24,474 nt of DNA from Desulfurococcaceae archaeon (GCA_038896955.1 JAWAXJ010000001.1:1-24474); one strand, 5' to 3'; numbered from the stretch's first letter, positions 2,987 to 23,160 are shown. Notes: generated by a model not told the origin, from the letters alone. Made by a program: numbers and translations.

Positions 2987-3407
2987 GCTTCTTCACCCAT
3001 TCACGGAATATCTTCTCTGTTATTATACCTGCTTCTCTCTCAAATTTTTTAACCCTGGTAACCTCTTTTAAGACTCTTCTTCTAGCCTTCACAAGCTTGT
3101 TAAGCTCGAAAGACTTCAATGCGAAGTAGTTTATCGTTTCGTCTGTCGCCTCAACCTCTATTATCGCTCTATACCCCTTCTCCAGTGGTTCAACCTTGAC
3201 CTTTGACACTACATCGATATTCCTCTCACGTAGAAATCTTACTCTGAAATTCCAGTAGCTTAATGTTGACTCGAGCATCGTACCTATGATCCATGCTAGC
3301 CCCTTCATCGCTCTTACAAAATCCTCTTTGGTAGGTGTTGACGCCTCCTCATCAACCTTATCCTTGCGTATAACGGCCCCCCTTTGCTTAGAGGATTGTA
3401 TAACCAT
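2973..3407 (-). CDS. Hypothetical protein (144 aa), charged
   Basis: ATG 3407 after SD GGAGGGA; divergent from the MCP. Confidence 0.75.
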   Translation of the reverse strand: MVIQSSKQRGAVIRKDKVDEEASTPTKEDFVRAMKGLAWIIGTMLESTLSYWNFRVRFLRERNIDVVSKVKVEPLEKGYRAIIEVEATDETINYFALKSFELNKLVKARRRVLKEVTRVKKFEREAGIITEKIFREWVKKHVSS

Positions 3408-3465
3408 TTCCCTCCTATGTTTATATGACACCGCCTATAAATAGATTTTACGGTGGTGTCGAGAT

Positions 3466-3840
3466 ATGCCTATCTACAAGACTGGAGCACAGATGTTTAA
3501 GAAGTACTCGGCTAAGTTTAACCCGACTGTGGTTGGTACAAGGTTCACCGATGTTAGGGAGGTAGCCCTTGATAGGGCTCAAGAGGGTTTAAATGTTATC
3601 GGCACGGCTAGAGACCTGATAAGACCGATACTAGATGAGTACGGTATAGGGGGCGGTTTAAGGGCTACGTATCTAGCCTTCGGTACCGCCCTCTTGAGGC
3701 ATGCTGTCAGGCAGAAGGGTGACGTAGCCAAGAAGGTAGCTAACGGTCTCAAGAGCTACTTCGTAACAGCATACGGTCTTGATCCAGCTGTATGCGATGA
3801 GATAATACAGGTGATAACTGGCTGGGTGATGCCGTACTAA
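3466..3840 (+). CDS. Major capsid protein, SIRV2-type four-helix-bundle fold
   Basis: Aligns by eye over its whole length with SIRV2 MCP recalled from memory: AKFNPTVVGTRFTDV ~ AKFNAFSNPTVASTILSNV; PILDEYGIGGGLRATYLAFG ~ AVLTQYGITGPNRAIYQGFG; NGLKSYFVTAYGLDPAVCDEIIQVITG ~ NGLKGYYISAFNANPQVLDAVVNIITG. CTATAAATA box at 3435-3443. Confidence 0.9.
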   Translation: MPIYKTGAQMFKKYSAKFNPTVVGTRFTDVREVALDRAQEGLNVIGTARDLIRPILDEYGIGGGLRATYLAFGTALLRHAVRQKGDVAKKVANGLKSYFVTAYGLDPAVCDEIIQVITGWVMPY

Positions 3841-6469: not shown

Positions 6470-6745
6470 GTGGAGCCGTCATCGTTCACCCTACCTCCAC
6501 TCTCGATTACGCTAGATGGTTGTATAGTTGATGTGCTAGAGGTTACTAGATCAACACTTATCTCTGGTGAAACATGGCTCCATGTAGCTGTTAGAATAAA
6601 CTATATGGGTGTTAGGAGTAGGGTTTTTACGATAGATGCTAGAAGCCAGAGAGAGTTTATCGATAAGCTTAGAGTTGAGATAGCGAAAGTGAAATTCATA
6701 TATTACGCATATGGTATAGAATTGTTGAGGAGGCTGATAGCTTGA
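6470..6745 (+). CDS. Small beta-sheet/helix hypothetical protein (91 aa)
   Basis: GTG start; TTGA overlap couples it to the 1533-aa gene. Confidence 0.75.
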   Translation: MEPSSFTLPPLSITLDGCIVDVLEVTRSTLISGETWLHVAVRINYMGVRSRVFTIDARSQREFIDKLRVEIAKVKFIYYAYGIELLRRLIA

Positions 6746-9700: not shown

Positions 9701-11343
9701 TCTTCAAGGAAGGATTCTGGGATATAAAAGCTATAGACAAGTTCCTTGCGGGCTTCATAACGGCAAGCTTCAAAGTAGCCTACATAGACATGGCGACGAT
9801 GAGCTGGAGCGAGAAATGGGTAAACCAGCCGGTAATGTATCTACCACCAGAGCGGAAGCTGATAGAGCTTAGAGCACTGATGGATAGAGCGTTAGATATA
9901 CTGAAAGAGATACAGAAAGATATAGCGGTTGGCTACCAGGAGTACATTATAGCTACATACGATGAGTTCAAGAGTAAGCTTACAGGTGTAATCGAGAGGG
10001 TTAACAAGTTCTTCGCCGAAGACTACAAGCAGATAACTGGCTTGGAGCTACCGGATGAGCTTAAGCTATCGTTCGTCGAAGCATACTACAAGCCTTACGT
10101 TGAGAGCCTAGACATTTGGAGGGAGGTCTACACGGTTCGAAGGATCAGGATGTGGACTCAGCGCTGGCTCGGATGGTTGATGTACCGTGTTGCAACCGGC
10201 GTGGTGACAAGGGTTGAGATGAGTAGGCTTATAGATACCGTGGTTAAATACTCTAGGCTAACTGGGGTTGAGAGAGAGTTTCTATACGAGGTTATGAATA
10301 TAATGTTCGGTATAGCGGTGAAGGATTATGCGGTTACACCAACACAGCTTGCCTCACTAAGCGAATATATCGTTATACCAGACGAGCTTATAGAAGCTTG
10401 CTTCGAGGCTAGGCTAATACCTGAGGAGTGGAGGGGGGTTTGGAGACAGTACATATCTGTTAGACCGATAGCTGACGATGTTAAAGCATTACTATCAGTG
10501 TATAGACGCGCCATGCTATACGTTAAGATACCTGATGAGATTGATAAAGCAGTAAAGGAGTATGCTAAACTTATAGGTTTCACTGATAGAGAGATGGCTA
10601 TAATGCACCTTAGAAATCAACTCGAAGAACTTATACTGAATTCTAGAGAATATATACCTACACCTTCTATGCTTGCATCGATATGTGAGTACATACCAGA
10701 GGCTAGGAGGTTCTTCGACGATGTCATGAAGGCTAAGCGTGTACCGAAGGAGTGGCAGGAGGTATGGTCGAAGTATATAGATATAAAGCCTCTTGTTGAT
10801 GATATTAAACGATACCTGTCGAGGGCTGAACAGCTATATGCAAGCTTCATGATATCGTCTAGAGAGTTTGAAAAGGTTCTAAACGAAGTCTCAGGCTTGT
10901 TAGGGTATACGCCTAAGGAGTTAGAGTTCCTGAGAAAAGTGACAGACTATGAACGCTACAGACGTGCATGGACAGAACTCATAGGTACAGTTGATAGGCT
11001 TGTCGAACTTAGCGAATACTCACCTAAGGCAAGCAAGTATGCGCTTGGCAAAGTGAAGGAGATGATTGATGCGCTCCCATTGCCGTATGCGGATAAGCAG
11101 GAGCTGAAGGAGATGTGGGAGGAGTATATCCGTAATAGACCAGTTAAGCCCGAGGCAAGGATGTATATCACACAGCTGATAAACCTGTATGTTGATGGGC
11201 TGATATCAGATATTGATCTCGAGAAGGAGCTGAACGAGATGAAGAAGTGGGGCTTCTCAGATGATGAGATAATGTTCTATAAGGCTCAGGCAGCACTTAG
11301 AAGAGCTAGGAAGTTAAGAATACCTGTAACATATCCTGAATAG
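6742..11343 (+). CDS. Very large structural protein (1533 aa), probable terminal structure/fibre scaffold
   Basis: TTG start with SD GAGGAGG; N-terminal 11-residue amphipathic repeats, hydrophobic middle, three ~108-aa C-terminal repeats. Ligamenvirales use their largest ORF for terminal structures (e.g. SIRV2 ORF1070); homology not verified. Confidence 0.85.
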   Translation: MSQELPEIRPEEIEQMAKLLADVFVQSYSQTQPVELTCTYQLVEEEKICLDAIASFQAGVLDPLGQLRDWFVSVFNSVASWVASAITAFIERAVIPSINAISDFLNRVILPAIESVIGSISRAISDTVSATGKILLESLGALGKTVTDALSSSVKTLSNLLASVGKTILDSISAAFKSIVDLLSGIGKTIMDTLSAAVKSLSDAFKSIGKTILDSLAGFANNIIDAFKSIGKTVMDALSGAAKSIIDYFSVAFKSIVDLLSGILKGIMDALHGVAEVFIDALTVMGRSILDALSAGVKALSDFFSNIAKSIMDGFSKIDKGLVDLWNFMVGAFKDIAGIISVGFSEIGRAFMGFVNGVIEAGAWITSAIKRIGEYIWIGLPESIRLGLEHLFELIQKIVRYMTEGVEPGWEFTSSPPLVLGVRLILPKSEFPVFFCTPSSLFAPLVNALVGVYEAYIQPALTSITQTIWSGIQTLQEFFANAIRAVWGSAQKVFSGLAEFLGSSITGFLGGLWEVFSRLSSILRGVFEAILGGLHEQVGKYMGRQAAPLLTEVAKSIGIGTPEYLKAENIETQIMNMYTMAWVFLSSPLWASIPVRLAAHGMYQAGQALYNIQEPIHLSLRPFGIGIDIPISITKAIGASLSHFSREVKEWVDIVGSAMVYGMGIWVSQPISRVLSYSLRNVLPVELPSLDLVMEAARRSMPSAAYEDMLKLSKYYLSLYGYSDLVIDLLFASVDRYHVVVKDRFGVERKIPLSLIYELPSASDVATMMVRDIFASIADFYTLYKARGMAEDVGALYYLLRFRYPSPERLWQFTTRGISGLLWVTMTDAERADIEKEAKDIGAYTPVAPSMLNFKVQDLMRALKTYMKWHDYAKFSWLQGFTSDNMIYIDTLADIPTKIDQRWMIKWGIYEQLSAKGVTYTSPVNEFITRYVELTPTSRITLDLTNFCRTLQATGLHPAWVPATAVAEAMNALSEERTLLRTGFVNIFKEGFWDIKAIDKFLAGFITASFKVAYIDMATMSWSEKWVNQPVMYLPPERKLIELRALMDRALDILKEIQKDIAVGYQEYIIATYDEFKSKLTGVIERVNKFFAEDYKQITGLELPDELKLSFVEAYYKPYVESLDIWREVYTVRRIRMWTQRWLGWLMYRVATGVVTRVEMSRLIDTVVKYSRLTGVEREFLYEVMNIMFGIAVKDYAVTPTQLASLSEYIVIPDELIEACFEARLIPEEWRGVWRQYISVRPIADDVKALLSVYRRAMLYVKIPDEIDKAVKEYAKLIGFTDREMAIMHLRNQLEELILNSREYIPTPSMLASICEYIPEARRFFDDVMKAKRVPKEWQEVWSKYIDIKPLVDDIKRYLSRAEQLYASFMISSREFEKVLNEVSGLLGYTPKELEFLRKVTDYERYRRAWTELIGTVDRLVELSEYSPKASKYALGKVKEMIDALPLPYADKQELKEMWEEYIRNRPVKPEARMYITQLINLYVDGLISDIDLEKELNEMKKWGFSDDEIMFYKAQAALRRARKLRIPVTYPE
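7263..7526 (+). repeat. Exact in-frame direct repeats in the hendecad region
   Basis: 33-bp AGCTTTCAAATCTATAGTAGACCTCCTCTCAGG at 7263 and 7494 (231 nt = 77 aa apart); 28-bp AGATGCTTTCAAATCTATAGGTAAAACG at 7347 and 7413 (66 nt = 22 aa apart). Confidence 0.9.
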
Positions 11344-11681
11344 TGTGGTGGTCAGCCATCTCTCGATGGGGTCTAACATATAAGGGTGTTGAGATTTTAA
11401 CACCGGAAGAATGGAATGCGGTAGTCGATGCACTAGAAGAGCTAGATAAGAGAATCAGATGCGGTAAAGCGAAGTTTAGCGGCGATGGTGCAACCACAAC
11501 ATTCAATATAGCACATGAAGCAGGTAAAACACCTATAGTCGCACTCGTAGGCAAAGCTACCTCAGGGCTACCAGACATAGACTACTGGACTGTTGACGAA
11601 ACATATATATCAGTGACATTCAAAACAGCACCTCCAAGCGGTGCAGATGTACAGGTATGGTGGCTCGCTATAGCTATATGA
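11343..11681 (+). CDS. Small structural protein with N-terminal helix and beta-sandwich (112 aa)
   Basis: EILTPEEWNAVVDAL helix followed by FSGDGATTTFNIAH...FKTAPPSG, a pattern common in phage tail/fibre beta-domains; overlaps both neighbours. Confidence 0.75.
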   Translation: MWWSAISRWGLTYKGVEILTPEEWNAVVDALEELDKRIRCGKAKFSGDGATTTFNIAHEAGKTPIVALVGKATSGLPDIDYWTVDETYISVTFKTAPPSGADVQVWWLAIAI

Positions 11682-12754
11682 CTCGTCTAATATACTACTT
11701 CTATCCGGTGCTGCGTAGGGTTAGCTTCAGTGTAATAGCAAAGAAGCATTGCGAACAGCTTAGAAAGTACTTCAGGCTCTATGAGATGGATGAGCTGGCT
11801 CTGCCATACATAGAAGCCGCTACGAAGCCGCTGCTTATACTTCAACCCTACTTCTACCCGCTTCAAAAGTATGAGTCGAGATTGGCTAGGAAACGGCATT
11901 ACTTCAACGGTTTGATAGGTATCGATGTTGCTGATTCAACACATATAACACCATATGCGGTTAGTCTAACGGAGTATGCGGATGCTTTAATAGTCCCATC
12001 GAATTTTGCGAAGAGGGTTTATGAGGGTTCAGGCGTCAAGAAACCGGTACATGTGGTTCCGCATGGCGTGGACGAGTCTTGGATAGATGCCCCCCCGTCA
12101 AAGCCATCCAAGTTCAAGCATATATCTGATCTGAAGGAGAAGCTTGGCTGTAAGCTACTCCTAAGCTTCATAGTTCATAGCGAATACAGGAAGGGTTTGG
12201 ATATTTTGCTTGAAATTTATAGGAGGCTGTATGGCGAGAGGAGGGACGTAGCATTAGTTATTAAAACTATGCATGGAGCTGGCTACATATCGAAGCCAAT
12301 AGACTATAAGATGGATGGATTAGACCTCTATCTAGAGTGGAGGGTGAGCTCAGAGTGGTTTAGTGAGGGTGAGCTCATGGAGCTCATAGATATATGCGAT
12401 GTATTCCTGCTCACGAGTAGGGGCGGGGGGTTCGAGCACCCAGCTCTCCAAGCCCTCTCAAGGGGTCTGCCAGTCATAGCTGCTAAGGGAGGAGCATGGG
12501 ATGATTATCTACCAGAGTGGAGCCTTGTAGAGTCTGTCAGGAGTGGAAGGGTTTTGGAGAACAACCCAATACACGATGGTTACGGTGTGGAGATGGTTTT
12601 GGAGAAGGCTGTAGATAAGACAATAGATGTACTCGATAATCTTGAGGAGTATAAGGTTAGGGTGAAAGACTATGTTGATACACATGTGAGAAATGAACTG
12701 ACATGGGGTGCAATAGGTAGAAGTCTTAGAGATATAGTCGAGGAATATATGTAA
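11678..12754 (+). CDS. Glycosyltransferase, GT4-like, with variant nucleotide-binding motif
   Basis: IVPSNF, VHVVPHGVD, RKGLDIL, TSRGGGFEHPALQALSRGLPVI; ATGA overlap with the upstream stop. Confidence 0.9.
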   Translation: MTRLIYYFYPVLRRVSFSVIAKKHCEQLRKYFRLYEMDELALPYIEAATKPLLILQPYFYPLQKYESRLARKRHYFNGLIGIDVADSTHITPYAVSLTEYADALIVPSNFAKRVYEGSGVKKPVHVVPHGVDESWIDAPPSKPSKFKHISDLKEKLGCKLLLSFIVHSEYRKGLDILLEIYRRLYGERRDVALVIKTMHGAGYISKPIDYKMDGLDLYLEWRVSSEWFSEGELMELIDICDVFLLTSRGGGFEHPALQALSRGLPVIAAKGGAWDDYLPEWSLVESVRSGRVLENNPIHDGYGVEMVLEKAVDKTIDVLDNLEEYKVRVKDYVDTHVRNELTWGAIGRSLRDIVEEYM

Positions 12755-12792
12755 CGATAAGCTTTTTAGAGTGTACGCTAATAGATGTTCAT

Positions 12793-13248
12793 ATGTTTAG
12801 ACGTACGAAGGATAGGATCAGGTTAGAAGGGAAACTTACACTTATACTGATAAGATGTGGGAAGGAAGCATATAGGAAAACATATACTAACATGATCGTC
12901 GATGCTGGAATAGCACATATAGCTGGTCTTATAGGTGGTGTTGCAGCAACCCCATTCACATATATAGCGGTAGGGACTGGTACTACACCACCCTCACCGT
13001 CAGACACTGCTTTACAGAATGAAGTGATGAGGGTGCCGGCTACTATAACTATGTTAACTACAACAAGTCCCAACGATACGGTACACTATGATGCTGTATT
13101 CAATATAACAGCATCATACAGTTTAGCTGAGGCCGGTATATTCGACGCACCATCCGGTGGTACTATGCTTGCAAGGAGAACATACACCGCTATAAGTGTA
13201 GGCGGCGGGGATGTACTCAAAGTAGTATGGGATATAAAGGTGGGGTGA
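12793..13248 (+). CDS. Phage tail-collar/fibre-base-like protein (DUF3751/PF12571-like)
   Basis: NMIVDAG.AHIAGLIGG...YIAVGTGTTPPSPSDTALQNEVMR...NDTV...LAEAGIFDAPSGGTMLAR matches the recalled tail-collar pattern (T.aG..A...AvG.G...taL.nEv.R...E.GlFd..g.liA). Confidence 0.75.
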   Translation: MFRRTKDRIRLEGKLTLILIRCGKEAYRKTYTNMIVDAGIAHIAGLIGGVAATPFTYIAVGTGTTPPSPSDTALQNEVMRVPATITMLTTTSPNDTVHYDAVFNITASYSLAEAGIFDAPSGGTMLARRTYTAISVGGGDVLKVVWDIKVG

Positions 13249-13258
13249 ACCGTAAACA

Positions 13259-13447
13259 ATGTTAAAGACAATCTCTCTAGCTGATTCAGTAAAGCTTAAC
13301 GAGTACTTCACCATCAGCTTCTTACTGCATGGCTGTTTACTACGCCTCGTATTCAAGGGTAGTATGATTTTACCTGAAGACCATAACAATCCCGTCTATA
13401 TACTTAAGGAGATGGTGAGGAGGCTGAGGGCGGTGGGTTATACTTGA
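13259..13447 (+). CDS. Small hypothetical protein (62 aa)
   Basis: SD GGGGTGA upstream; TTGA coupling to the next gene. Confidence 0.6.
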   Translation: MLKTISLADSVKLNEYFTISFLLHGCLLRLVFKGSMILPEDHNNPVYILKEMVRRLRAVGYT

Positions 13448-14745
13448 CGACTTTAGACGATATCGAGGCTTACATAGATACTATAAGGAAGGTTGCTAAG
13501 GGTGATAGCGTAACAAGAGAAGATATGCATAGCATAAGATTAGGCATCGTAAAGCTAATCGAATATCTCAAAGAAAGGGGGGTTACACATCCATATCTAA
13601 CCAATGCTGAAAACGAGATTATGAAGGTTGGTGTACTGAAGTCTATGGATATAGTTTCACCAGAAAAGGAGAATGCGATAGTCATGTCATTATACTGGCT
13701 ATGGAGGCTTATCGAAAAACTAGCATATCTACAGTATACCGACTCTATAATTCTATCAGAACCCATATTCTTTGCGGGGAAGGAGTTTTTCGTAGACTAT
13801 ACCTGGTCTGATACGACACCGCACTTTTTCAACTATGACCCAAACTACACTTCATTCTATGTTTTACCTTCAGCAATAGAGCTTGATCAACCTGCCGCAA
13901 ACCATAAACGCTCATATGAGTATTACCGTACTACCCTCTGCTACACATTTGGATGGTACTGGCATTCAAACTTCACAGCTATGAACACGTTTAAGTTTAA
14001 TATGAGGATGGGGGCATACCACGGCTATGACGGGACTCGTGCTAATATAGCGCTTGTAATCGGCAACCCAGGCATATTCGATGAAACAGAACAGCCTGCA
14101 CTACCCTACTGTCTACTATCATGGAGCATGTATAGTTTAGGCTATCCTAACGGAAGCTACGACAAATCGCTTTACGGCTACATAGTATTGACGGATCCAC
14201 CTATATTAAGGTTTACACCGGCAAACCCGCCGCATGTAGCATACCGTGATATCACAAGTCTTGCAGGTTCGTCAGTCAACCTACTAGTCGGCTATAATGA
14301 TGCATGGTTGGCCGACTGGGATCAATGGGCTTCCCTACATAGGCTATCATACTTTGTTACGGGTCAAGCTACGCATGTAAGATATGAACTACGTAGAGAA
14401 ATAGAGATTGAAGGCTACTCTATCAGGATCATCAGGAGGGATGGTTTTGATGAGCTTTGGATAAAGAGGGGTAGGGAGGGCTTACTGATATCGTTCAACG
14501 ATAAAGTCGAGGTGGTGGAGGAGATACGTAGAGGTAATGTTACAGAGTCTCTCAACAAGTATGATGAAGTCTTCGCTAGCGGTAGAGAGAAGCCTATAGT
14601 ATCTGACGATACAGTACTCATCATAAGAAGGATGAGTACAGGTATACCATTGAGAGTTGTGTTAAAGTTTGTTAAGAAGACTGGTAGACTACTCGTTGTA
14701 TACGGTGAAGAAGGGAAGAACATGTTCCAGATAAGCGGTATATAA
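13444..14745 (+). CDS. Three-part putative structural/adhesion protein (433 aa)
   Basis: N-terminal duplicated helical motif, aromatic/Ser/Thr/Asn-rich beta middle (about 13740-14370), charged C-terminal domain. Confidence 0.75.
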   Translation: MTTLDDIEAYIDTIRKVAKGDSVTREDMHSIRLGIVKLIEYLKERGVTHPYLTNAENEIMKVGVLKSMDIVSPEKENAIVMSLYWLWRLIEKLAYLQYTDSIILSEPIFFAGKEFFVDYTWSDTTPHFFNYDPNYTSFYVLPSAIELDQPAANHKRSYEYYRTTLCYTFGWYWHSNFTAMNTFKFNMRMGAYHGYDGTRANIALVIGNPGIFDETEQPALPYCLLSWSMYSLGYPNGSYDKSLYGYIVLTDPPILRFTPANPPHVAYRDITSLAGSSVNLLVGYNDAWLADWDQWASLHRLSYFVTGQATHVRYELRREIEIEGYSIRIIRRDGFDELWIKRGREGLLISFNDKVEVVEEIRRGNVTESLNKYDEVFASGREKPIVSDDTVLIIRRMSTGIPLRVVLKFVKKTGRLLVVYGEEGKNMFQISGI

Positions 14746-14776
14746 GAAAAGATTAATACAGTAGAAGAAAGATGAT

Positions 14777-15526
14777 ATGTTGATGCCTGCGCGAAGGAGG
14801 AGGACACTATCAAGGTCACCAGTACAGAGAGCGAAGCTTTGGGATGTAAAGATGAAGCCCGACGTATATGCAGAGTATCTGAATGCTACAAAGCCACTAG
14901 CACTACCTAGCATAGCAAGCTACCAGGCGACACACGAACATCTCATATCAACCGTTAGAGAGATACTTAGCAAAAACCCATCTGAATACCCGGTGATGCA
15001 TGAGTACATGTGGTATGCTGAAAAACTTTGGAAGCTCGGTAAAACATACACGTCAAAAGCACTGCAGCTACAGGTAGACGCACTGTACATCTGGTATCTG
15101 GCTAGAGGTTTAAACGATGTAGTGCTGAGAGCGATAGCTTCCGCGTTAGGTATAAAAGTAAGCCCAGTAGAAGATATAGTCGACAGGGTTATAGCACCCA
15201 TGTTGCTTAGAATAGTTGGTAAAGGCTCGATAACAACTGATGGGACAGAGCAGACGATGTTCGAGTATATAGGTCTAGCTATGCTGAGCGGATACGTAGA
15301 TCTAAGCAATATGACAGATGGCGATACTGTTGTAATAAAGACGTTTGTAAAGATAAGGGAAGATGGAGAATACAAGAAGTATGCAGAGGAGACGTTTACA
15401 GGTAGACAGGAGTCGCCGGCATTATATTTCATACCAAGGCTGACGGCGTATGCGTATAAGGTCGTAATACATCAGACAGCCGGTTCGTTCAAGACGTTCG
15501 ACTACCTGTTCACCAAAGTAGTATAA
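14777..15526 (+). CDS. Second MCP-fold protein fused to a C-terminal beta-sandwich domain (249 aa)
   Basis: RSPVQRAKLWDVKMKPDV ~ SIRV2 RSYSQRYAKWQAKF..NPTV; TVREILSK...YMWYAEKL ~ NVSAVLTQ...YQGFGLKV; SKALQLQVDAL..WYLARGLNDVVLRAI ~ GPALVNMINGL..YYISAFNANPQVLDAV. About 110 extra beta-rich residues follow (SGYVDLSNMTDGD...HQTAGSFKTFDY). Confidence 0.72.
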   Translation: MLMPARRRRTLSRSPVQRAKLWDVKMKPDVYAEYLNATKPLALPSIASYQATHEHLISTVREILSKNPSEYPVMHEYMWYAEKLWKLGKTYTSKALQLQVDALYIWYLARGLNDVVLRAIASALGIKVSPVEDIVDRVIAPMLLRIVGKGSITTDGTEQTMFEYIGLAMLSGYVDLSNMTDGDTVVIKTFVKIREDGEYKKYAEETFTGRQESPALYFIPRLTAYAYKVVIHQTAGSFKTFDYLFTKVV

Positions 15527-15581
15527 CACACATATACAACCTCAGGCAAAAACTTATTTATCAGACGATACGATAGCATAG

Positions 15582-15905
15582 ATGGAGATGTGCCCAGATT
15601 TCCCGAGGGTTGAGGTTGGGGTTGTCGAAACGGTGCCGGCTGCTAGAGACCATCTGTTCATACCTGAGGTTGATGTTGACGATACCGGTGTATCACTCGA
15701 CGTAAACGGGTTCCTACACTGTATCAAGGTTCCGGCAGACTATCAGCCGGTTAAATTTAACCTAGACAGACCAGTCACTGATAGTGAGTACTCAGTCGTA
15801 TATCCTGGCGTTGCTAAAGTGATATCGCGGATCGCTAGAACACTATACCTTAAGGCTCCATCTGGACAGAGGACAAAGGCAGTCGTGGAGGTGTTAAAGC
15901 TATAA
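15582..15905 (+). CDS. Small beta-rich putative structural protein (107 aa)
   Basis: TTATTTAT box at about 15555; Val/Pro-rich all-beta pattern; TAATG coupling to the next gene. Confidence 0.75.
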   Translation: MEMCPDFPRVEVGVVETVPAARDHLFIPEVDVDDTGVSLDVNGFLHCIKVPADYQPVKFNLDRPVTDSEYSVVYPGVAKVISRIARTLYLKAPSGQRTKAVVEVLKL

Positions 15906-16084
15906 TGGATGAGGTGATAGCGTTGGTCAGGATGAGTGGGGGAGACTACGCGTTGATCTACCGTATAGCTAGGAATGAGAGGAAGACTGTTAACGACTGG
16001 ATAATGTCGTGTATACTTGAGAAGCTTGAGAAGCTTCAGGAGGAGTGGATGATTAAGCAGAAGATACAGGTTGACGAGAAGTAG
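15905..16084 (+). CDS. Ribbon-helix-helix-like protein, 59 aa; not in the ORF track
   Basis: MDEVIALVRMSGGDYALIYRIARNERKTVNDWIMSCILEKLEKLQEEWMIKQKIQVDEK; TAATG overlap; fills the operon gap. Confidence 0.7.
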   Translation: MDEVIALVRMSGGDYALIYRIARNERKTVNDWIMSCILEKLEKLQEEWMIKQKIQVDEK

Positions 16085-16096
16085 GGGGTGTGAACC

Positions 16097-17191
16097 GTGT
16101 CTCTGCTAGAGTTTCTCGACCCGGCGTACGTGAAAAGCAAGCTTGATAGCTTCGATAGCAAGCTAGATGTGGCTTTAAGTACTAGAGCATCAGAATCCAC
16201 GCTGGCGGCATTCAGCGGCAAGTTCCCGGGTGCCGTAACCCTAGGAGACACGATGTCAAACCCGACAACCACTATAATCGGCGGCGCCCTGCTAGGCTGG
16301 GATAGCGCGGGTGGCGTCTGGGAGAGAGTATATACTGACGGTTCTAATAGGCTTAAGGTTGCGTTGGATACTCTTCCAAACCCATCTAACCTGGATGTAG
16401 CGCTAAGCACAAGGGCTTCGGAGTCGACGCTATCCTCGATCTTAGGTAAGCTAGATGTAAACCTCTCAACCAGGCTAGCTGAGACAACATTCACCAGTAG
16501 ATGGGATGGAGGCATATACGGCTTCGATGGAACTACGGCAAGAAAGATTAAAACCGATGCGGCTGGTGAGCTGCAGGTCGACGTCTTAACATTACCAAAC
16601 CCATCGAACCTTGATGTAGCGCTCTCTACGAGGGCGTCTGAGACGACTTTAAGTGCGATTAAGACCCAGACCGATAAGCTGACATTCGATGCAGCGAATA
16701 GGCTTACAGTTAACGCTGCAGTGGTAGCTAACCCATCAAACCTTGATGTGGCTTTAAGCACTAGAGCTAGCGAGGCGACGCTATCCTCGATACTGAATAA
16801 GCTTGACGTAAACCTATCCACAAGGCTAGCCGATACGAAGATACCCAACGCTCTAGGCCAAGCCAGCCTAGACGTAGTCGGCTCGACGATGTATGCGTTA
16901 GGTGTCGTTCCTTCTTATCTACCTTCGAGAATGCCATACTGTATAGCGAATATCTCGGTCGGGACAACGGAAGGCAGCACCGCAATAGCTGCCCCGGGAG
17001 GAAAGATGCTGATACTCAGGAACAGGGGGGACGTAGACATATTGGTAGGTGTAAACGGCTCTGTTCCAGCTACCAACCCGCTTATCCTGAGGGCTAGGAC
17101 GATAAGGATATTCCCATTCAGCGGTGTAACCGCGGTATACTATAAGACCGCTACCGGTAGCAGCACCCTGGATATAGAGTATTGGAGCTAG
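16097..17191 (+). CDS. Repeat-rich fibre-like protein 1 (364 aa) with C-terminal beta tip
   Basis: Four LDVALSTRASE.TL and two LDVNLSTRLA repeats separated by G(W/F)D...TD...L.V segments; C-terminal beta-domain from about IANISVG. Confidence 0.8.
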   Translation: MSLLEFLDPAYVKSKLDSFDSKLDVALSTRASESTLAAFSGKFPGAVTLGDTMSNPTTTIIGGALLGWDSAGGVWERVYTDGSNRLKVALDTLPNPSNLDVALSTRASESTLSSILGKLDVNLSTRLAETTFTSRWDGGIYGFDGTTARKIKTDAAGELQVDVLTLPNPSNLDVALSTRASETTLSAIKTQTDKLTFDAANRLTVNAAVVANPSNLDVALSTRASEATLSSILNKLDVNLSTRLADTKIPNALGQASLDVVGSTMYALGVVPSYLPSRMPYCIANISVGTTEGSTAIAAPGGKMLILRNRGDVDILVGVNGSVPATNPLILRARTIRIFPFSGVTAVYYKTATGSSTLDIEYWS

Positions 17192-17202
17192 AGGTGGGGG
17201 GT

Positions 17203-17439
17203 TTGCCTGAATACGAGTATATATTCGACATGGTAGAGCTACTGAAGGATAAGCCTCTAGACGCCGCCCGCATCTTGGAGGCGGTAGCCAAACCCGGGTT
17301 TAAACCGCTAGCCGTCAAGGTTGACAACGAGAGGGGTCAGGTGGTCTTCTACTTCAGCAACCCGCTTGGAAGGGAGGAGAAGAGCGATCTAGACCTACTG
17401 GTTAAGAAGATCTTCCAGGAGTGGAAGAAGCGGGCGTAA
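17203..17439 (+). CDS. Small protein following fibre 1 (78 aa), paralogue of 20704-21021
   Basis: TTG at 17203 with SD GAGGTG 6 nt upstream; D...L...PLDA..I.......G...V..F..P pattern. Confidence 0.7.
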   Translation: MPEYEYIFDMVELLKDKPLDAARILEAVAKPGFKPLAVKVDNERGQVVFYFSNPLGREEKSDLDLLVKKIFQEWKKRA

Positions 17440-17443
17440 CTAG

Positions 17444-17671
17444 ATGTCAGCGAAGAAGTATGTATGCTCGATATGCGGTAGGGAGCTTGATGGTAGAAGC
17501 CTAGTCGTCGAGATACAGGATCCTATGGTAGCGTCTAAGGGTAAGGCTAGGATAGGCGACTTCATCTGCTATAACTGTATCTCGAAAGTCTACGAGCCAC
17601 CGGCAACATCCCCCAGAAAGATAACGGTTACCTGCCCTAGATGCGGGGAGGTGATCGATGTATGGCTCTGA
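17444..17671 (+). CDS. Small zinc-binding protein with three CxxC pairs (75 aa)
   Basis: CSICG, CYNC, CPRCG. Confidence 0.8.
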   Translation: MSAKKYVCSICGRELDGRSLVVEIQDPMVASKGKARIGDFICYNCISKVYEPPATSPRKITVTCPRCGEVIDVWL

Positions 17672-18564
17672 GACCTGGAGTAGACATACCGGTCGTTCAA
17701 TGGTGTGAGCCAACCCCAGACAGCCAGCACCACGGCACGGCTGTAGCATGGGACATGGGTGGCTACATATACTGGCTACGAGGCAACAATTCAAACTGGT
17801 TTAGAAGGTACAGCGTAAGAGGGGATACGCATCAGTACCTGGCTGGCGCTCCTTGGGCGGCATATCAGGGAGCACACCTCATATACGACCCGTCGCGAGG
17901 ATACTTCTTCGCCATACAGGGGAACGCTGGAACAGGGTTCGCATATTATAATCCAGCTAATGGGGGTTGGACATCCCTCGCGGCGCTACCAGTAGCGGCT
18001 AACTACGGTAGCTGGATATGCCACACGTGCTCAGCCCTAAGATCTGGGGCTAACGACGACTATGTATACTACGCACCGGCTTACGGTTCAACATCTTTCT
18101 ACAGGTACTCAATATCCGGCAACTCGTTCACATCGCTGGCGTCAGCTCCGGCGACGCTAAGCAACGGAAGCATTGGCGTTTGGGTCTATAACTACGACCC
18201 TGATAAGATATACGTTATAAGGGGAGGAGGAACTACAACAATATACGTATATAGCATAAGCGGAAACTCCTGGACAACTCTAACGTACACTCCAGCAATC
18301 TTCGGCTTCTCAACCGGTACTTACGCAGTATACGACCCAGATACAAATAGAATATACATGTGCCTGAACGAAGGATATAGATACATATACTATCTAGACC
18401 TGAGCACGAATAAAATGGAGGCTTACACTAGGCTACCGCTTCCATATTATAGGGAGGCTAGGAGGCTTGAGATAGTGAAGATCGGCGGCAGGAAGTTCCT
18501 GTACGTCTTCAGAGGGTACGAGGGGGCTCCGTTCGCCATCTGGAGGATACCACTTTACTGGTAG
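17662..18564 (+). CDS. Six-bladed Kelch-like beta-propeller, candidate receptor-binding protein (300 aa)
   Basis: ATG 17662 after GGAGGTGA; six blades such as YIYWLRG...FRRYSVRGDTHQYLAGAP, YFFAIQG...FAYYNPANGGWTSLAALP, KIYVIRGGG...YVYSISGNSWTTLTYTP. Confidence 0.8.
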   Translation: MALRPGVDIPVVQWCEPTPDSQHHGTAVAWDMGGYIYWLRGNNSNWFRRYSVRGDTHQYLAGAPWAAYQGAHLIYDPSRGYFFAIQGNAGTGFAYYNPANGGWTSLAALPVAANYGSWICHTCSALRSGANDDYVYYAPAYGSTSFYRYSISGNSFTSLASAPATLSNGSIGVWVYNYDPDKIYVIRGGGTTTIYVYSISGNSWTTLTYTPAIFGFSTGTYAVYDPDTNRIYMCLNEGYRYIYYLDLSTNKMEAYTRLPLPYYREARRLEIVKIGGRKFLYVFRGYEGAPFAIWRIPLYW

Positions 18565-18573
18565 GTGATGGAA

Positions 18574-20232
18574 ATGGCTATTCTGGAAGCCCTAGACCCT
18601 GAATTCGTTAGGTTGTTGATCGAGCAAATATCTCTATATTTATCTAGCATGCGGTATCTATCTTCTTTCATCATATTCGATGACTCGTCGAGACTTATAA
18701 CGAGGGTAGGCTATATTGACGACGGCTACGTGAGGATAAGGGATGCACAGGACACCTCGATAAGCATAGTAGAGATACTCAGGGAGATGACGTGGACGAG
18801 CCTGAGCCTAGCACAGCTAGGAGCAACAACAGCTCAACCGGGAGATCAACCGCCGCCGAATGTGATAGTTACGGGAGGGTTTGACGGTAGCTTAGTTAGA
18901 ATGCTTAAGACTGATTCAGACGGTAGACTACAGGTAGGAGTCGTATCGTTACCAGTTACCAAGGGAGACTGGCTATCTGTAATACCAAACCCGCCCAACC
19001 TAGACGTAGCGCTATCAACTAGAGCGTCAGAGGCGACGCTGGTAGCGATCAGGGACAGACTGCCCGCATCCCTCACATCAGCGGGCAACTTCAGAGTAGC
19101 TGTGCTAGAGGACGGAATAGGATTAGCAAAGGACTCAACACTATCCTCTATCCTGAGCAGACTAGACACAAACCTATCTACCAGAGCGTCTGAAACCACG
19201 TTGTCTGGTATAAAGTCTCAGACAGATAAGCTGACGTTCGACGCGTCGAACAGGCTGATCGTGAACGCAACCGTGGTAGCAAACCTGGACAGAAGCCTGC
19301 TCACGGTTAAGAGAGAGCTTTTAACGCTTGCTCCAGCGTCTGGGAGAAACGCAACAGTGCCGGTGGACGACTACGTTCACTGGATTGACTCAGCCGAGTA
19401 CAGTGTTACCGAGACCTCGTGGACGGAGAAGACAAGGTGCGTGGTGAGGCAACGAAACCTTCCCTCGAGAACGTACCTTGTTCACGTGTACGTCGAAGGG
19501 TACGTATCAGCTGGTCAAACCCTCTACGTCAGGTTCAGAAGCCACTACAGAGGTACACTGGCTTCGTTCACGTTCACCGAGACCTCGTACGTTAGCAAGG
19601 AGGCGAACGCAACGTACATTGCTCCCGGCTGGTGGGACGACCCCATATACGTGGAAGCGTACGTAACCGGTGGAACAGGGTACGTAAAGAACGCTCAGAT
19701 AAACTTCGTTAAAGCCAACGTCGTCGAAGGATGGACTGGCACAATCAGCGGAGAGCAGTTTAAACCGTTAAGAATTGACGCCGAGGGCTACCTTTTAGCT
19801 AAATCCCCACAGCTCCCAAGCACTTTAACCGCGGCTGGAAACCTCAAGGTTTCAGTTGAAGAGTCATCCATCAAGCAGCCAGTGAATATCCAAGACCACT
19901 GGGTTGAAAGCGTAGTTCTACTGCCAAGCGGGGCTCGGACAGCAAGCGGGAACACGGGGGACATAGATGTTGGGAGGTTCCTTTACGGCGAGATATGCAT
20001 AGATATAACCGCAGTTTCAGGTACGAATCCAACGTTGGACGTATACATCGAGGGCAAAGACCAATACACTGGAAAATACAAGGTTCTCTTCTCTCACACG
20101 GGCTTAAACTCGGTTCAAACAATATGGGATACAATAACACTGCTAGCCTTCAGGTACCTGAGGGTTAGATGGGTTGTTGGAGGAACCTCGCCTTCATTCA
20201 CCTTCTCTGTCTCAGGTGAGTTTAAGTCGTAA
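18574..20232 (+). CDS. Multi-domain fibre-like protein 2 (552 aa)
   Basis: ATG 18574 after AGGTGA; shares the LDVALSTRASE and TDKLTFDA.NRL.VNA.VVAN modules with fibre 1; duplicated LP.(S/T)LT.AGN..V; inserted beta-domain (about 19366-19720); C-terminal ARTASG...DITAVSGTNPTLDV...RYLRVRWVVGGTSPSFTFSV beta-domain of a type seen in tailed-phage proteins. Confidence 0.8.
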   Translation: MAILEALDPEFVRLLIEQISLYLSSMRYLSSFIIFDDSSRLITRVGYIDDGYVRIRDAQDTSISIVEILREMTWTSLSLAQLGATTAQPGDQPPPNVIVTGGFDGSLVRMLKTDSDGRLQVGVVSLPVTKGDWLSVIPNPPNLDVALSTRASEATLVAIRDRLPASLTSAGNFRVAVLEDGIGLAKDSTLSSILSRLDTNLSTRASETTLSGIKSQTDKLTFDASNRLIVNATVVANLDRSLLTVKRELLTLAPASGRNATVPVDDYVHWIDSAEYSVTETSWTEKTRCVVRQRNLPSRTYLVHVYVEGYVSAGQTLYVRFRSHYRGTLASFTFTETSYVSKEANATYIAPGWWDDPIYVEAYVTGGTGYVKNAQINFVKANVVEGWTGTISGEQFKPLRIDAEGYLLAKSPQLPSTLTAAGNLKVSVEESSIKQPVNIQDHWVESVVLLPSGARTASGNTGDIDVGRFLYGEICIDITAVSGTNPTLDVYIEGKDQYTGKYKVLFSHTGLNSVQTIWDTITLLAFRYLRVRWVVGGTSPSFTFSVSGEFKS

Positions 20233-20245
20233 TGGAGGTGAGTGA

Positions 20246-20704
20246 ATGAGCATATACCCGCCTACTGTAAGTGCAAAAGAAGTCTGGGAGTACCCACAAA
20301 GAACGTTAAACTATATGTACGGCATATCGCCAACAGACGATATTTTACTTAGCGATACAACCCTTCGTTACACGAATTCAACGAGCCCTGTAAAAATGAA
20401 AGAAATGCTTTTATTCTATGGTGGTGTAATACGCACATACTTTGAAATGTATGCAGCATCTGGTTACAGAGCGTATGGACGAGTGTACATTAACGATAAA
20501 CCCTATGGAACGCTCAGATCAACAACATCAACCACGCCTGTTGCATTTACTGAAGACTTATATTTCCCACCCAATTCATTTTACCAAATCTATGGTTATT
20601 CATCTTCTAGTTCCGCTTATGCATATTATCCTGTACAGAGTGTTAGGGGCGTGATAACACTAATATCGCCCCAACCACCTATAGTTGGGTTTGTGACACT
20701 ATAA
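20246..20704 (+). CDS. Putative fibre tip/adhesin beta-domain protein (152 aa)
   Basis: SD GGAGGTGA; N-terminal EVWEYPQRTL motif; Tyr/Ser/Thr-rich domain resembling the inserted domain of fibre 2; AT-rich codons. Confidence 0.75.
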   Translation: MSIYPPTVSAKEVWEYPQRTLNYMYGISPTDDILLSDTTLRYTNSTSPVKMKEMLLFYGGVIRTYFEMYAASGYRAYGRVYINDKPYGTLRSTTSTTPVAFTEDLYFPPNSFYQIYGYSSSSSAYAYYPVQSVRGVITLISPQPPIVGFVTL

Positions 20705-21021
20705 TGACAATTAGAATACTGATTGATAGAGAAAAATTAAAACATCTTGAGCCGCTTGATGCTGGCGTGATACAAAAGCATTTAGAGGATAAAGGCCATG
20801 TTTTCAAAGGAATTTCATGTGTTATTGCTGATGATGAAAAGGTTATAATCGTCTTTGAGGAACCGCCGGTACCAATTGATAAGGTAGCGGTTGACTTAAA
20901 TGTTGCGCCAACAGATATTGATATATTGGAATTTGAACATAGAGGAAAGAAAAGAGTAACGCTTTTTGAAGGAATTAATAAAAAGGGACGCTATGAAAAA
21001 ATAGAGCTACTGCTTGAATAG
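20704..21021 (+). CDS. Small protein (105 aa), paralogue of 17203-17439
   Basis: TAATG coupling; IDREKLKHLEPLDAGVI...G...VIIVFEEP. Confidence 0.75.
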   Translation: MTIRILIDREKLKHLEPLDAGVIQKHLEDKGHVFKGISCVIADDEKVIIVFEEPPVPIDKVAVDLNVAPTDIDILEFEHRGKKRVTLFEGINKKGRYEKIELLLE

Positions 21022-21035
21022 GAGTGGACCCAAAA

Positions 21036-21236
21036 ATGGATTCAACGAAAATAGTTGCAGTAATATGCTTAACGGCAATATGTATAGCAGCATTGCTTAA
21101 AGGCATAGATTCAGTGCTCGCGAGTGCTATTTCGGCATCAATTGGTGCGATCGCAGGCTACTCAGCTAAAAAGCTTAAGAAAAAGAAAAGTACTACAAGT
21201 ACATCAGAAAATGGTTGGATGAAGGAATTGATTTAG
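21036..21236 (+). CDS. Small membrane protein, two hydrophobic segments with poly-Lys tail
   Basis: IVAVICLTAICIAALLKGIDSVLASAISASIGAIAGYSAKKLKKKK; ATG 21036 (GTG 21024 is an alternative start). Confidence 0.65.
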   Translation: MDSTKIVAVICLTAICIAALLKGIDSVLASAISASIGAIAGYSAKKLKKKKSTTSTSENGWMKELI

Positions 21237-21246: not shown

Positions 21247-21613
21247 ATGAAAAACTATATCGTCTGAGGATATAAGAGAGCTGATAAAAGGCTACGAACC
21301 CTATTTTTTAAAAGGGTTTTATGAAAGTGAGGGGTTGTGCTTTGAAGGCAAGGGAACTATGAATATACACATGTATAATTCAAATCCAACGCTGATAGAT
21401 ATCGTCTATGAGGCGCTTACGAGGCTTGGATTTTGTGCAGTGATTAAAGATAGGGGTTTACCCAAGGGGGCTAAGAAGAGGGCGTATGAAATAAGGATTA
21501 AAGGATGGAAGGAGAGTATGAAGTTCATCCTTTTAGTGAAACCAATTATTAAGGTTCCGCGATGGATTAAGTCTGCTCAGGAAGCATGGCTTCCTATGGG
21601 GGCAGAATCATGA
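21247..21613 (+). pseudogene. Single-motif LAGLIDADG homing endonuclease with a one-base frameshift
   Basis: YFLKGFYESEG motif, then IHMYNSNPTLIDIVYEALTRLGF and YEIRIKG...FILLVKPIIK. Removing one A from the A5 run (21250-21254) joins ATG 21247 to this frame: MKTISSEDIRELIKGYEPYFLKGFYESEG. Confidence 0.75.
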
Positions 21614-21767
21614 AATGCGAAGAATGTGGATTAACAATGGATAGAGACGTTATAGCTGTATTGAACCTTCAGATGCGGGGAGCTGGGTCCCCCCAAAGAG
21701 CCCTCAATGAGTTAATCGAGGGGGAAGGGCTATGTATGTCTATAAAAGACTACGTAGCTCAGAACCG
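21574..21767 (+). mobile_element. tnpB: 3' remnant of an IS200/IS605- or IS607-type tnpB with structured end
   Basis: GRIMKCEECGLTMDRDVIAVLNL is the second zinc knuckle plus RuvC-III DRD..A..NL motif of TnpB; followed by GC-rich hairpins. No upstream TnpB body and no TnpA. Confidence 0.75.
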
Positions 21768-21828
21768 TGAGGGAAAAGTTCACATACGGGGCTACGAGGA
21801 TTATTATCCTGAGACTGGGGTGATGTAA

Positions 21829-22290
21829 ATGGTTGACTTCAAGAGGTTCTCCATCTACGTGGCGAACAGGAAGGTGAGGAAGGGGTGGGACTACATTATC
21901 CTACCCGATGGAAAGAGGGTTTCAGTTGAGCCGGGCAAGTACCTGAAGCTGCTCAGCGAGAAGCCTTTAAAGTTCGGCTTCGAAGACCTGACTGAGGAAA
22001 TCGGTGAAAAACCCGACTGGGACTTCGACGAGCCTATATGCGAGGTTGTTGAGGAGACTGGAATCGTAAGCAAGAAAGTGAGACTTAAATGCACCTATGG
22101 AGCCGGCTATGAGAACCACCTCTACTTCGACAATGTTCTCATCTACAAGTTTACTCCTGGAGGATATACGGTAGAGATCTCCTTCACCTACACTGACTGG
22201 AAGCCGGTTATTATGGGAGTTGTCGGCGGTGTCGCCGCTACAGCAGCAATTATTACAGCAGCAATATATGCGAGAAGGAGAAGGGCATAA
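21829..22290 (+). CDS. C-terminally membrane-anchored protein (153 aa)
   Basis: SD GGGGTGA; soluble beta-rich region, then VIMGVVGGVAATAAIITAAIYA and RRRRA stop-transfer tail. Confidence 0.8.
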   Translation: MVDFKRFSIYVANRKVRKGWDYIILPDGKRVSVEPGKYLKLLSEKPLKFGFEDLTEEIGEKPDWDFDEPICEVVEETGIVSKKVRLKCTYGAGYENHLYFDNVLIYKFTPGGYTVEISFTYTDWKPVIMGVVGGVAATAAIITAAIYARRRRA

Positions 22291-22516: not shown

Positions 22517-22954
22517 CTATAAATGTTCAGTATATGTTACAGATGCACCGCATACAGGGCATACACGTCTTACACGTTTGAAGCATCCGCTGGTAGCGGT
22601 CTCATACTCTACAATCCACTCGTCGTGTCTACACCGGGATATTGGTATAGGCTTCAATGCTAGAGTAGACATCACTATTTCTACAGCCCTTCTTCTTCTC
22701 CTTGAACGCCATTTGCTACGCTTAAGCATGGCGAGGTATGTGAGCGCTAGTTTACCATCCATCTGATGCTCCCAGAGGTGGTCAAGTAGCGCGGTTCTAT
22801 CGTTGAGTCTTGCAGAGCATGCTGGACACGTGTACGGTTCATATGCTTGTATATGCGCGGTTCTATAGTGTCTCACCAGATTCGATACATGCCTATATTT
22901 CACACCGCATACAGGGCATACATATATGTTGCTACGCATCACCGAGTATCTCAT
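22517..22954 (-). CDS. Tandem C2H2 zinc-finger protein with an extra C-terminal zinc site (145 aa)
   Basis: CPVC...LVRHYRTAH, CPAC...LLDHLWEH, basic RSRRRRR, then CRH...GC...CPVCG. Confidence 0.85.
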   Translation of the reverse strand: MRYSVMRSNIYVCPVCGVKYRHVSNLVRHYRTAHIQAYEPYTCPACSARLNDRTALLDHLWEHQMDGKLALTYLAMLKRSKWRSRRRRRAVEIVMSTLALKPIPISRCRHDEWIVEYETATSGCFKRVRRVCPVCGASVTYTEHL

Positions 22955-23160
22955 TCTTCCACCACCTTGTAGACCTTCACCATAAAGCCGTACTCTCTAG
23001 CTAGGCCTGCCAGCCTGTATGCTGCTGATCTACTTTCTGTTACGTATACACTCTTCTGCACACGTGTGACAGGCAGGTTCATCTTCTTGAGTCTGTAGTA
23101 GAATGTTCTTGGCATGCGGCCGGGTTTAGCTCCTGGTTTATCCATTACTACAAGGTACAT
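22951..23160 (-). CDS. Cas2/VapD-like small ferredoxin-fold protein (69 aa)
   Basis: MYLVVMDK...RTFYYRLKK...RVQKSVY matches the Cas2 pattern (YLV.YD...R....L.....RVQ.SVF); SD GGGGA; minus-strand T6 run just upstream. Confidence 0.65.
   Translation of the reverse strand: MYLVVMDKPGAKPGRMPRTFYYRLKKMNLPVTRVQKSVYVTESRSAAYRLAGLAREYGFMVKVYKVVEE

Follow-up and report, generated by a model that had tools for sequence, protein, structure and literature searches.

A variable block of fibre- and lectin-type genes, probably for host recognition at the virion ends of the filamentous archaeal virus Chiyouvirus

Why does a filamentous archaeal virus carry, next to its structural genes, a row of genes that recall the tail fibres of tailed viruses? 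The question is raised by positions 12793-21236 of a contig of 24,474 nucleotides (nt) that is filed under a Desulfurococcaceae archaeon (GCA_038896955.1, JAWAXJ010000001.1:1-24474). This whole stretch, taken on one strand, is referred to here as the window, and all coordinates follow its numbering. To our knowledge, host recognition by filamentous archaeal viruses is understood for very few isolates, essentially by the P1070 fibres of SIRV2, which bind to pili. An earlier note on this DNA described the block as one operon for a hybrid adsorption organelle, i.e., a tail-fibre apparatus grafted onto a filamentous virus, and considered it an undescribed system. Gene content and predicted folds argue, on balance, for an accessory, variable and modular gene block that would serve host recognition at the virion ends of Chiyouvirus.

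The window is one whole contig that was binned into a metagenome-assembled genome (MAG) of 1.37 Mb, which is 62.8% complete and belongs, by its EF-2 gene, to a Desulfurococcaceae archaeon of hot springs. The contig itself is viral, as judged from its SIRV2-type major capsid protein (MCP) and its string of structural genes. Chiyouvirus has been described as the type of the proposed family 'Chiyouviridae' within the Ligamenvirales, Adnaviria (Duan et al., ISME Commun 2024, PMC10848311), and Table S4 of that paper is the gene list of IMGVR_UViG_3300022544_000008, a genome of 26,867 bp. Every coordinate in this table equals the window coordinate plus 2050 (genes 9-41, with identical order and content). 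Two MCPs, a P1070 homologue and a Cas2-like gene are common to both sequences, and a mini-CRISPR adjoins the window as in the published genome. Because of this constant offset and the matching mini-CRISPR, the window represents positions 2051-26524 of the published Chiyouvirus, the same genome, of which it misses approximately 2 kb at the left and 0.3 kb at the right. No terminal inverted repeat is present in the window, which stops short of both genome ends, and phage records yielded no match when the entire window was compared with them by megablast. In further assemblies of this virus (L014-L017), the mini-CRISPR lies immediately outside the left end of the window. In L014 it occupies 1616-1840, some 300-500 bp before the first window position, and consists of four repeats (TTCAATTCTCTTTTTAGATGCATG) and three spacers. 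Spacers 2 and 3 are 100% self-matches at window positions 3227-3270 and 3081-3118, within an open reading frame (ORF) on the minus strand (2973-3431) just upstream of the MCP gene; a mini-CRISPR with two self-targeting spacers was already reported (PMC10848311).

The genome and several of its key labels are thus already published and the object is not new, which leaves no room for an undescribed system. In Table S4 of PMC10848311, gene 21 (12793) is a 'potential terminal fiber protein' (PF12571, HHblits 98.6%), gene 23 (14777) a SIRV2-like MCP, gene 28 a zinc finger given as His1 ORF4 homologue and gene 29 (17662) a Kelch propeller (HHblits 99.95%). Genes 30 (18574) and 31 (20246) are listed as 'potential structural proteins', the latter as a 'triple beta-helix' structural protein with a probability of 94.6%, while gene 18 is a terminal-fibre or host-recognition protein with a BLAST match to a phage tape measure. 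Genes 22, 24-27, 32 and 33 are blank in this table and the block is absent from the discussion in the main text. New here are the shuffling of modules, the predicted lectin-like fold of a protein of 433 amino acids (aa), the relatives in tailed viruses, the paralogy of the two fibres within a widespread archaeal family, the free-standing form of the capsid-fused beta domain and the hypervariability of the block.

Is the block really part of this genome? A chimera joined near 12.76 kb, or a binning error, might be suspected, as the contig sits in a Desulfurococcaceae bin though the published host, assigned by spacers, is a Bathyarchaeon (PMC10848311), and as the bin has further contigs with similar fibre pieces. 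Such an artefact is nevertheless hardly worth considering. Five independent assemblies (NCBI MAGs, ENA, JGI) agree in the order glycosyltransferase (GT), 151 aa, 62 aa and 433 aa, and positions 11573-12918 are spanned without a single mismatch by contigs from four public hot-spring runs, which belong to three studies. In addition, read depth in the four runs is even over 11.0-19.8 kb and the gene order across 12.76 kb agrees with that of the published 26,867-bp genome. The chimera for which the earlier note had asked to look was therefore not found. Since the bin (Desulfurococcaceae, by EF-2) and the paper (Bathyarchaeon, by spacers) point to different hosts, binning is no evidence for the host. 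The CRISPR spacers of the MAG do not match the window either, so no host link follows from the bin. Candidate hosts are the Bifangarchaeales, by their spacer match, and the Desulfurococcaceae and Thermofilaceae, by co-occurrence. Eight further contigs of the same MAG (C7, C26, C42, C211, C107, C222, C84 and C209, of which C7 and C26 are also labelled L104 and L105) contain copies of block genes with 34-92% identity.

The block consists of fourteen ORFs that all run in the same direction with gaps of 0-55 nt, and all ORFs named by the earlier note are present in this tight, co-directional packing. Its status as one operon was not confirmed. The block continues a plus-strand string of structural genes that starts at 3466, and A/T-rich, TATA-like stretches precede 12793, 14777 and 15582. 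The string opens with the SIRV2-type MCP (MCP1, 3466-3840, plus strand; PF12193, E 2.7e-19), which shares 33-36% of its residues with the MCPs of cultured rudiviruses and has more than 180 relatives in hot-spring metagenomes. Next come the genes for a GT4 glycosyltransferase, for a 437-aa minor structural protein, for proteins of 1533 and 112 aa and for a second glycosyltransferase. The giant 1533-aa protein (6742-11343, plus strand) is of the P1070 terminal-fibre type, as its C-terminal part matches phrog_7334 (E 1.5e-22), and its N-terminal part is tape-measure-like (tape-measure PHROGs, E 1.5e-23). Directly behind it, the 112-aa protein (11343-11681) always trails the giant protein (15 loci, approximately 60% identity). 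It has the motif F-x-GDG-x-T-x-F and weakly matches PF03906, the N-terminal domain of the T7 tail fibre (E 0.011), while its family profile has no significant match in the PDB.

Conservation differs strongly between this core and the block. A survey covered 80 metagenome loci around GT homologues and one IMG/VR locus, 68 of which were searched with the window ORFs. All 68 contain the glycosyltransferase, 31 the giant protein, 22 the MCP and 15 the 112-aa protein. Among the block genes, the 151-like gene occurs in five loci, pieces of the second capsid paralogue MCP2 in 15, and the two fibres in one locus each; at E<=1e-4, none of the 68 loci has a counterpart of the 433-aa protein, the Kelch protein, ORF 20246 or the small proteins. 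Because these hypervariable, beta-rich genes adjoin a conserved core, the block looks like a host-range module.

What would tie such a module to the virion? The most telling gene is the one at 14777-15526 (plus strand; Chiyouvirus_23), which encodes a 249-aa protein. Its residues 1-125 are a second MCP paralogue (MCP2), to which a beta domain (residues 125-249) is fused. A profile of the N-terminal domain (residues 11-123) aligns by hhalign with the MCP1 family at 99.3% probability (E 1.9e-20, 113 columns), and the C-terminal domain is a separate gene elsewhere, which bears out the fusion of an MCP fold to a beta domain that had been noticed here. In relatives, the beta domain is a stand-alone ORF of 115-140 aa (about 122 aa), located directly after a 151-like gene (L019, L020) or a 433-like gene (MAG contigs C107, C222). 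The 121- and 122-aa ORFs of L019 and L020 were also considered as MCP2 helix bundles; this was rejected, as their alignment is with the C-terminal beta domain. A profile of the beta domain found nothing in the PDB and the PHROGs. By the usual logic of gene fusions, a beta domain joined to a capsid paralogue connects the fibre genes with the capsid lattice, and this is the main reason to suppose that the block acts at the virion.

Upstream of the fusion gene, the block starts with a 151-aa protein (12793-13248, plus strand; Chiyouvirus_21) that resembles PF12571/Gp80-like tail-fibre N-terminal or collar proteins. It matches phrog_5417 (E 1.2e-19), the 'tail fiber protein' family phrog_4176 (E 1.3e-12), phrog_3737 and the 'tail collar fiber protein' family phrog_4618 (E 4e-4). 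The tail-collar-like identity that was proposed for this gene therefore holds by PHROGs, with Pfam matches that stay below cut-off, and several close homologues carry a precomputed PF23140 match. Phmmer against PDB sequences gave nothing significant. There are 126 homologues at E<=1e-3, which share the motifs GTGTT...DTAL...E..R and EaGiFnAssGGTMlaR. The nearest relatives (148-183 aa, 49-59% identity; 53-59% for the adnaviral ones, with 53% in sister contigs) include one with readable context, which lies in a sister adnavirus. In this contig, L100, the order is MCP, GT, 221 aa, 162 aa (the 151-like gene), 789 aa, 112 aa, GT and, further on, the giant protein, and in L103 a 153-aa Gp80-like gene lies directly upstream of a 738-aa protein. 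Relatives with 35-42% identity are found in tailed viruses (one contig with Terminase_3 and SU10_adaptor, another with Phage_capsid_4), and the tailed-virus homologues P0286 and P0337 are located between head or adaptor genes and large proteins that PHROGs call tail fibres. The family profile also matches the baseplate hub of HFTV1 (PDB 9h4p, E 1.6e-4), in which two tandem copies of the domain are present (residues 403-508 and 514-567). On these comparisons, the 151-aa family is a genuine cross-realm domain family that adjoins a large variable fibre gene in both realms. As the 151-like gene recurs in at least eight sister loci at varying positions, and its nearest kin is adnaviral, it appears to be an old mobile component of the clade and not a one-off graft, contrary to what had been proposed. 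Between this gene and the next lies a 62-aa ORF (13259-13447, plus strand) that overlaps the start of the following gene by 4 nt and is kept in the assemblies L014-L018. Its C-terminus matches an ORF upstream of P0387 (L189; pairwise E 2e-7).

The following gene encodes the 433-aa protein (13444-14745, plus strand; Chiyouvirus_22), for which a helical region (residues 1-113), a lectin-like beta-sandwich (residues 114-305) and a further beta domain are predicted. An AlphaFold2 (AF2) model based on the family alignment has a mean predicted local distance difference test (pLDDT) score of 84.4 and a predicted template modelling (pTM) score of 0.75, with residues 110-433 mostly above 90. Foldseek against the PDB links this model to legume lectins with probabilities of 0.9-0.99, and against BFVD it gives weak matches to tail proteins and ConA-like proteins. 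At the sequence level, no match was obtained with Pfam, nothing significant with phmmer against PDB sequences and nothing in a single-protein scan of IMG/VR. An exhaustive HMMER search yielded 29 representative relatives. Their conserved piece corresponds to residues 114-305 and is N-terminal in relatives of 691-1001 aa; two such relatives lie in adnavirus contigs with the giant protein, one of the two being fused with a PQQ-type propeller. The helical residues 1-113 are a module of their own, which is joined to a WD40-like propeller in P0387. L103 contains a 433-like partner of its Gp80-like gene. Two other candidates were dismissed: the 789-aa ORF of L100 is not detected by the hidden Markov model of the 433 family, and the 436-aa ORF of L012 is a homologue of the 437-aa core protein. 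The corresponding blocks of L012, L013 and C7 encode Laminin_G_3 proteins. With moderate confidence, the model suggests that the 433-aa protein is a lectin-like adhesin with a swappable anchor.

The second half of the block is dominated by two repeat fibres of 364 aa (fibre 1; 16097-17191, plus strand; Chiyouvirus_26) and 555 aa (fibre 2; 18565-20232, plus strand; published start 18574). Six copies of a 44-nt repeat, encoding NLDVALSTRASExTL, are present in the fibre genes, and the two proteins are paralogous in their repeat part (E 6e-26), so that the earlier description of two repeat fibres stands. Relatives of fibre 1 are found in the Thermofilaceae contigs L012 and L013 (39-53% identity) and in C7 (46%). 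Fibre 1 is always followed by a gene for an 85-aa protein (17182-17439, plus strand), a candidate chaperone or partner, of which relatives with 47-53% identity come immediately behind the counterpart of fibre 1 in L012, L013 and C7. In front of fibre 1, a 107-aa protein (15582-15905, plus strand) and a 59-aa protein (15905-16084, plus strand) have copies on C7 that are 65 and 73% identical, respectively; the latter has weak RHH/antitoxin-like Pfam matches (E 0.01-0.04). C7 keeps the order of the 107-aa, 59-aa, fibre 1 and 85-aa genes. L012 and L013 have the giant protein, the 437-aa protein, a glycosyltransferase, fibre 1 and the 85-aa gene in common with the window. These contigs of 38.7 and 36.4 kb from Thermofilaceae MAGs carry a giant-protein homologue of 1,880-2,024 aa (27% identity to that of the window over approximately 1,570 aligned residues), the 437-aa protein, a GT, two fibres and a Laminin_G_3 protein. 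They probably represent a Thermofilaceae-associated sister clade of filamentous viruses, with the capsid gene located outside the parts that were fetched.

Fibre 2 has 197 homologues, in Thermofilaceae MAGs, 'Pyrobaculum genetic element 1', Fervidicoccaceae, Methanomethyliaceae and other bins; a literature search for 'Pyrobaculum genetic element' found nothing. In the AF2 model two beta domains (residues 270-385 and 474-555) reach a pLDDT of about 90. The model has 475 BFVD matches at E<=1e-3, mostly from Caudoviricetes: after the protein of the Pyrobaculum element, these are mostly tail, minor-tail, neck-appendage and fibre proteins, and compact matches to C1q-type domains are among them. Phmmer against PDB sequences found nothing significant and a single-protein scan of IMG/VR found nothing. 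C7 carries a copy of the C-terminal domain with 92% identity, compared to approximately 50% for the rest of the gene, and the depth of this domain is 5-50 times that of its flanks in four metagenomes, which points to a circulating receptor-binding cassette.

Some further observations concern the fibre genes. In the four hot-spring runs, depth rises from about 25 to 170-670 at 19808-20174, over the distal, C-terminal domain of fibre 2. Four contigs of run X3 connect the repeat of the mini-CRISPR straight to sequence starting at 19953, which implies that arrays with this repeat carry spacers against the distal domain of fibre 2 or a variant of it. Moreover, all four runs contain a join of the fibre 1 and fibre 2 repeats from 16767 to 19219, with 2,451 nt skipped and 31 other letters in between. 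The contig with this join has a depth above that of the virus, and its sides of only 26 nt make it weak evidence. It is probably derived from a related single-fibre gene of another element, or from a recombinant.

Between the fibres lie a 75-aa protein with a double zinc ribbon (17444-17671, plus strand; Chiyouvirus_28; Pfam E 4e-5 to 1e-3, all below cut-off) and a Kelch-type beta-propeller (17641-18564, plus strand; published start 17662). The propeller noted previously is borne out by a PF13964 score of 28.6 bits, above the cut-off of 25.3, and the protein also matches phrog_12615 (E 3.8e-17). Its gene is 90% identical on MAG contig C211, where it is found with the start of fibre 2. Fibre 2 is followed by a 152-aa beta protein (20246-20704, plus strand; Chiyouvirus_31), a candidate fibre tip, whose Atlas model (pTM 0.71) has C1q/TNF-like jelly-roll neighbours at template modelling (TM) scores of 0.58-0.66. 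The block ends with a 105-aa protein without family match (20704-21021, plus strand) and a 70-aa membrane protein (21024-21236, plus strand), which has one transmembrane helix (Kyte-Doolittle 19-residue maximum 2.61) and a 48% identical copy on C26. No other protein of the block has a signal peptide or transmembrane segment. The 85- and 105-aa proteins had been taken for a pair; they are not significantly alike (pairwise E 0.026) and paralogy was rejected.

Do these genes add up to a tail apparatus? As the earlier note stated, the capsid is of the SIRV2 type, and scans of the 38 window ORFs against Pfam and PHROGs found no HK97 capsid, portal or terminase, nor a tail tube, sheath or baseplate hub. 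The tape-measure-like repeats of the 1533-aa protein are the only feature of the window that resembles a tail apparatus; fibre-type and lectin-type domains are all that the block itself shares with tails, and the word 'apparatus' has to be dropped. A unit of tail-fibre genes that was taken from Caudoviricetes and grafted onto a filamentous capsid as a cross-realm organelle would account for the 151-aa family in tailed-virus tail modules and the HFTV1 hub, for the many Caudoviricetes tail proteins among the matches of the fibre model and for the tape-measure-like part of the giant protein. Such a transfer en bloc is unlikely all the same, not only because of the missing parts but also because the nearest kin of the 151-aa protein, the 433-aa protein and the fibres belongs to adnavirus-like or untyped archaeal elements instead of tailed viruses. 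The varying positions of the 151-like gene in sister genomes likewise argue against it, and the likeness beyond the 151-aa domain is one of generic beta-sandwich adhesin folds. Of the hybrid adsorption organelle, the fibre and adhesin character of the module survives, together with the homology of the 151-aa protein to proteins of tailed-virus tail-fibre modules and the BFVD matches of fibre 2, whereas the idea of a whole tail apparatus does not.

How might a host-recognition block of this kind work? The homologies, predicted folds, module shuffling and hypervariability described above are observations; presence in the virion, order of attachment, ligands and direction of transfer between realms are what we infer from them. 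The kit would comprise an adaptor with a tail-collar fold, a lectin-like protein with a swappable helical anchor, the MCP2-beta fusion, two paralogous repeat fibres whose distal beta domains differ, a conserved small partner behind the first fibre, the Kelch propeller and a candidate jelly-roll-like tip. Assembly onto the virion termini in the cytoplasm is proposed because the fibre proteins lack a signal peptide or transmembrane segment. The products may sit around the P1070-type complex at the virion ends, possibly docked by the MCP2-beta fusion and the 151-aa adaptor, after which the receptor-binding proteins would follow. Their distal lectin, propeller and jelly-roll domains could bind glycans or filaments of the host surface, and host range could shift by the exchange of cassettes with other archaeal viruses and elements. 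A more specific version, in which the MCP2-beta fusion docks a PF12571-fold adaptor that holds interchangeable lectin, propeller and fibre receptor-binding proteins, and in which cassettes are traded between Adnaviria, archaeal Caudoviricetes and other hot-spring archaeal elements, is put forward tentatively and is conceivable rather than likely.

Alternatively, the products might function in or on the infected cell, e.g., in superinfection exclusion, glycan masking, aggregation or egress. Virion incorporation is indeed putative, the MCP2 paralogues of rudiviruses are absent from virions, lectin and Kelch domains are also found in cellular adhesins, and homologues occur on the untyped elements C7 and L010, which have no capsid gene in the parts seen. 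On the other hand, such a role is difficult to reconcile with fibre proteins that lack export or membrane signals, with a block that stands in line with structural genes and with a PF12571-like partner that belongs to the tail-fibre modules of tailed viruses. Since repeats in the style of trimeric fibres, and fibres kept together with a small partner, are typical of virion fibres as well, a purely cellular function seems quite improbable.

Host recognition at the virion ends thus keeps our preference, though several points weigh against it. The Pfam scores of the 151-aa protein are below the curated cut-offs (16.9 vs. 23 bits for PF12571, 20.9 vs. 27 for PF23140). The lectin similarity of the 433-aa model has an E of about 1e-3 and TM scores of 0.2-0.4, the low TM scores being due to the several domains of the model. 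Prediction of a heterodimer of the 151-aa and 433-aa proteins scored 0.00, which according to the tool is no evidence either way. The AF2 model of the 555-aa fibre 2 is globally poor (pTM 0.37), and the fold of ORF 20246 is disputed, being C1q-like in the Atlas model and a triple beta-helix according to HHblits (PMC10848311). Finally, no function could be assigned to six of the fourteen ORFs, and the block products are putative virion proteins. The findings nonetheless suggest that an abundant, uncultured clade of presumably rod-shaped viruses may carry a far richer and exchangeable host-recognition kit, with at least one domain family in common with the tail fibres of tailed viruses. This makes the block a testable case of receptor-binding cassettes that cross structurally unrelated virus realms, an interest that is tempered by the earlier publication of the genome and key labels and by the putative nature of the virion role.

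Besides these genes, the right-hand flank of the block and contig C7 contain elements of a different nature. At 21276-22000 lies a remnant of a TnpB/Cas12f-like TNB domain (ORF 21586-21828; PF07282, E 7e-5). With a depth of 350-1190x in all four runs, this region is of high copy number, derived from an insertion sequence and common to many community genomes. The ORF at 21335-21613 has a weak LAGLIDADG match and is a homing endonuclease in PMC10848311. A 69-aa ORF on the minus strand (22951-23160) has no Pfam match at E<=0.05 and is given as a Cas2 homologue (HHblits 99.5%) in PMC10848311; the adjoining 145-aa ORF encodes a C2H2 zinc-finger protein. C7 encodes, at 14608-17082 of L104 on the minus strand, an 824-aa subtilase (PF00082, E 5e-36) that is split by an intein bearing a LAGLIDADG homing endonuclease, and it also contains two Laminin_G_3 lectins and fibre modules.

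Which known systems resemble this block most? The window has the rudivirus theme of SIRV2 and its P1070 in common, i.e., an SIRV2-type MCP with P1070-type and 437-aa proteins upstream of the block, and the rudivirus terminal fibres and, in its presumed role, the Chiyouvirus block both serve host recognition at the virion ends. Unlike P1070 of rudiviruses, the Chiyouvirus homologue has an additional N-terminal region of tape-measure-like repeats. In cultured rudiviruses only core genes were matched, namely the MCP in this analysis and the GTs and minor structural proteins according to Table S4 (PMC10848311). For this comparison of the block, the 151-aa protein was searched by tblastn against a phage collection, which gave six matches, none of them in a rudivirus, and the other block ORFs were compared with PHROGs profiles. 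The PF12571/PF23140 proteins of tailed viruses (podophage GP4 fiber I protein gp80) are homologous in sequence to the 151-aa protein, and in both realms these tail-collar proteins are encoded just upstream of a large, variable fibre or receptor-binding protein. In contrast to the collar proteins of tailed viruses, the 151-aa protein stands alone in a virus without tail or baseplate. HFTV1 (9h4p; Sci Adv 2025, PMC12494034) uses its hub gp44 and tail fibres as an adsorption device of an archaeal virus, of which one domain is shared with Chiyouvirus; HFTV1 is a siphovirus with a tube, tape-measure protein and hub, none of which are present in the Chiyouvirus window. The adsorption system of Chiyouvirus is therefore best described as a variation on the terminal-fibre theme of rudiviruses, with a real tie to the fibre proteins of tailed viruses.

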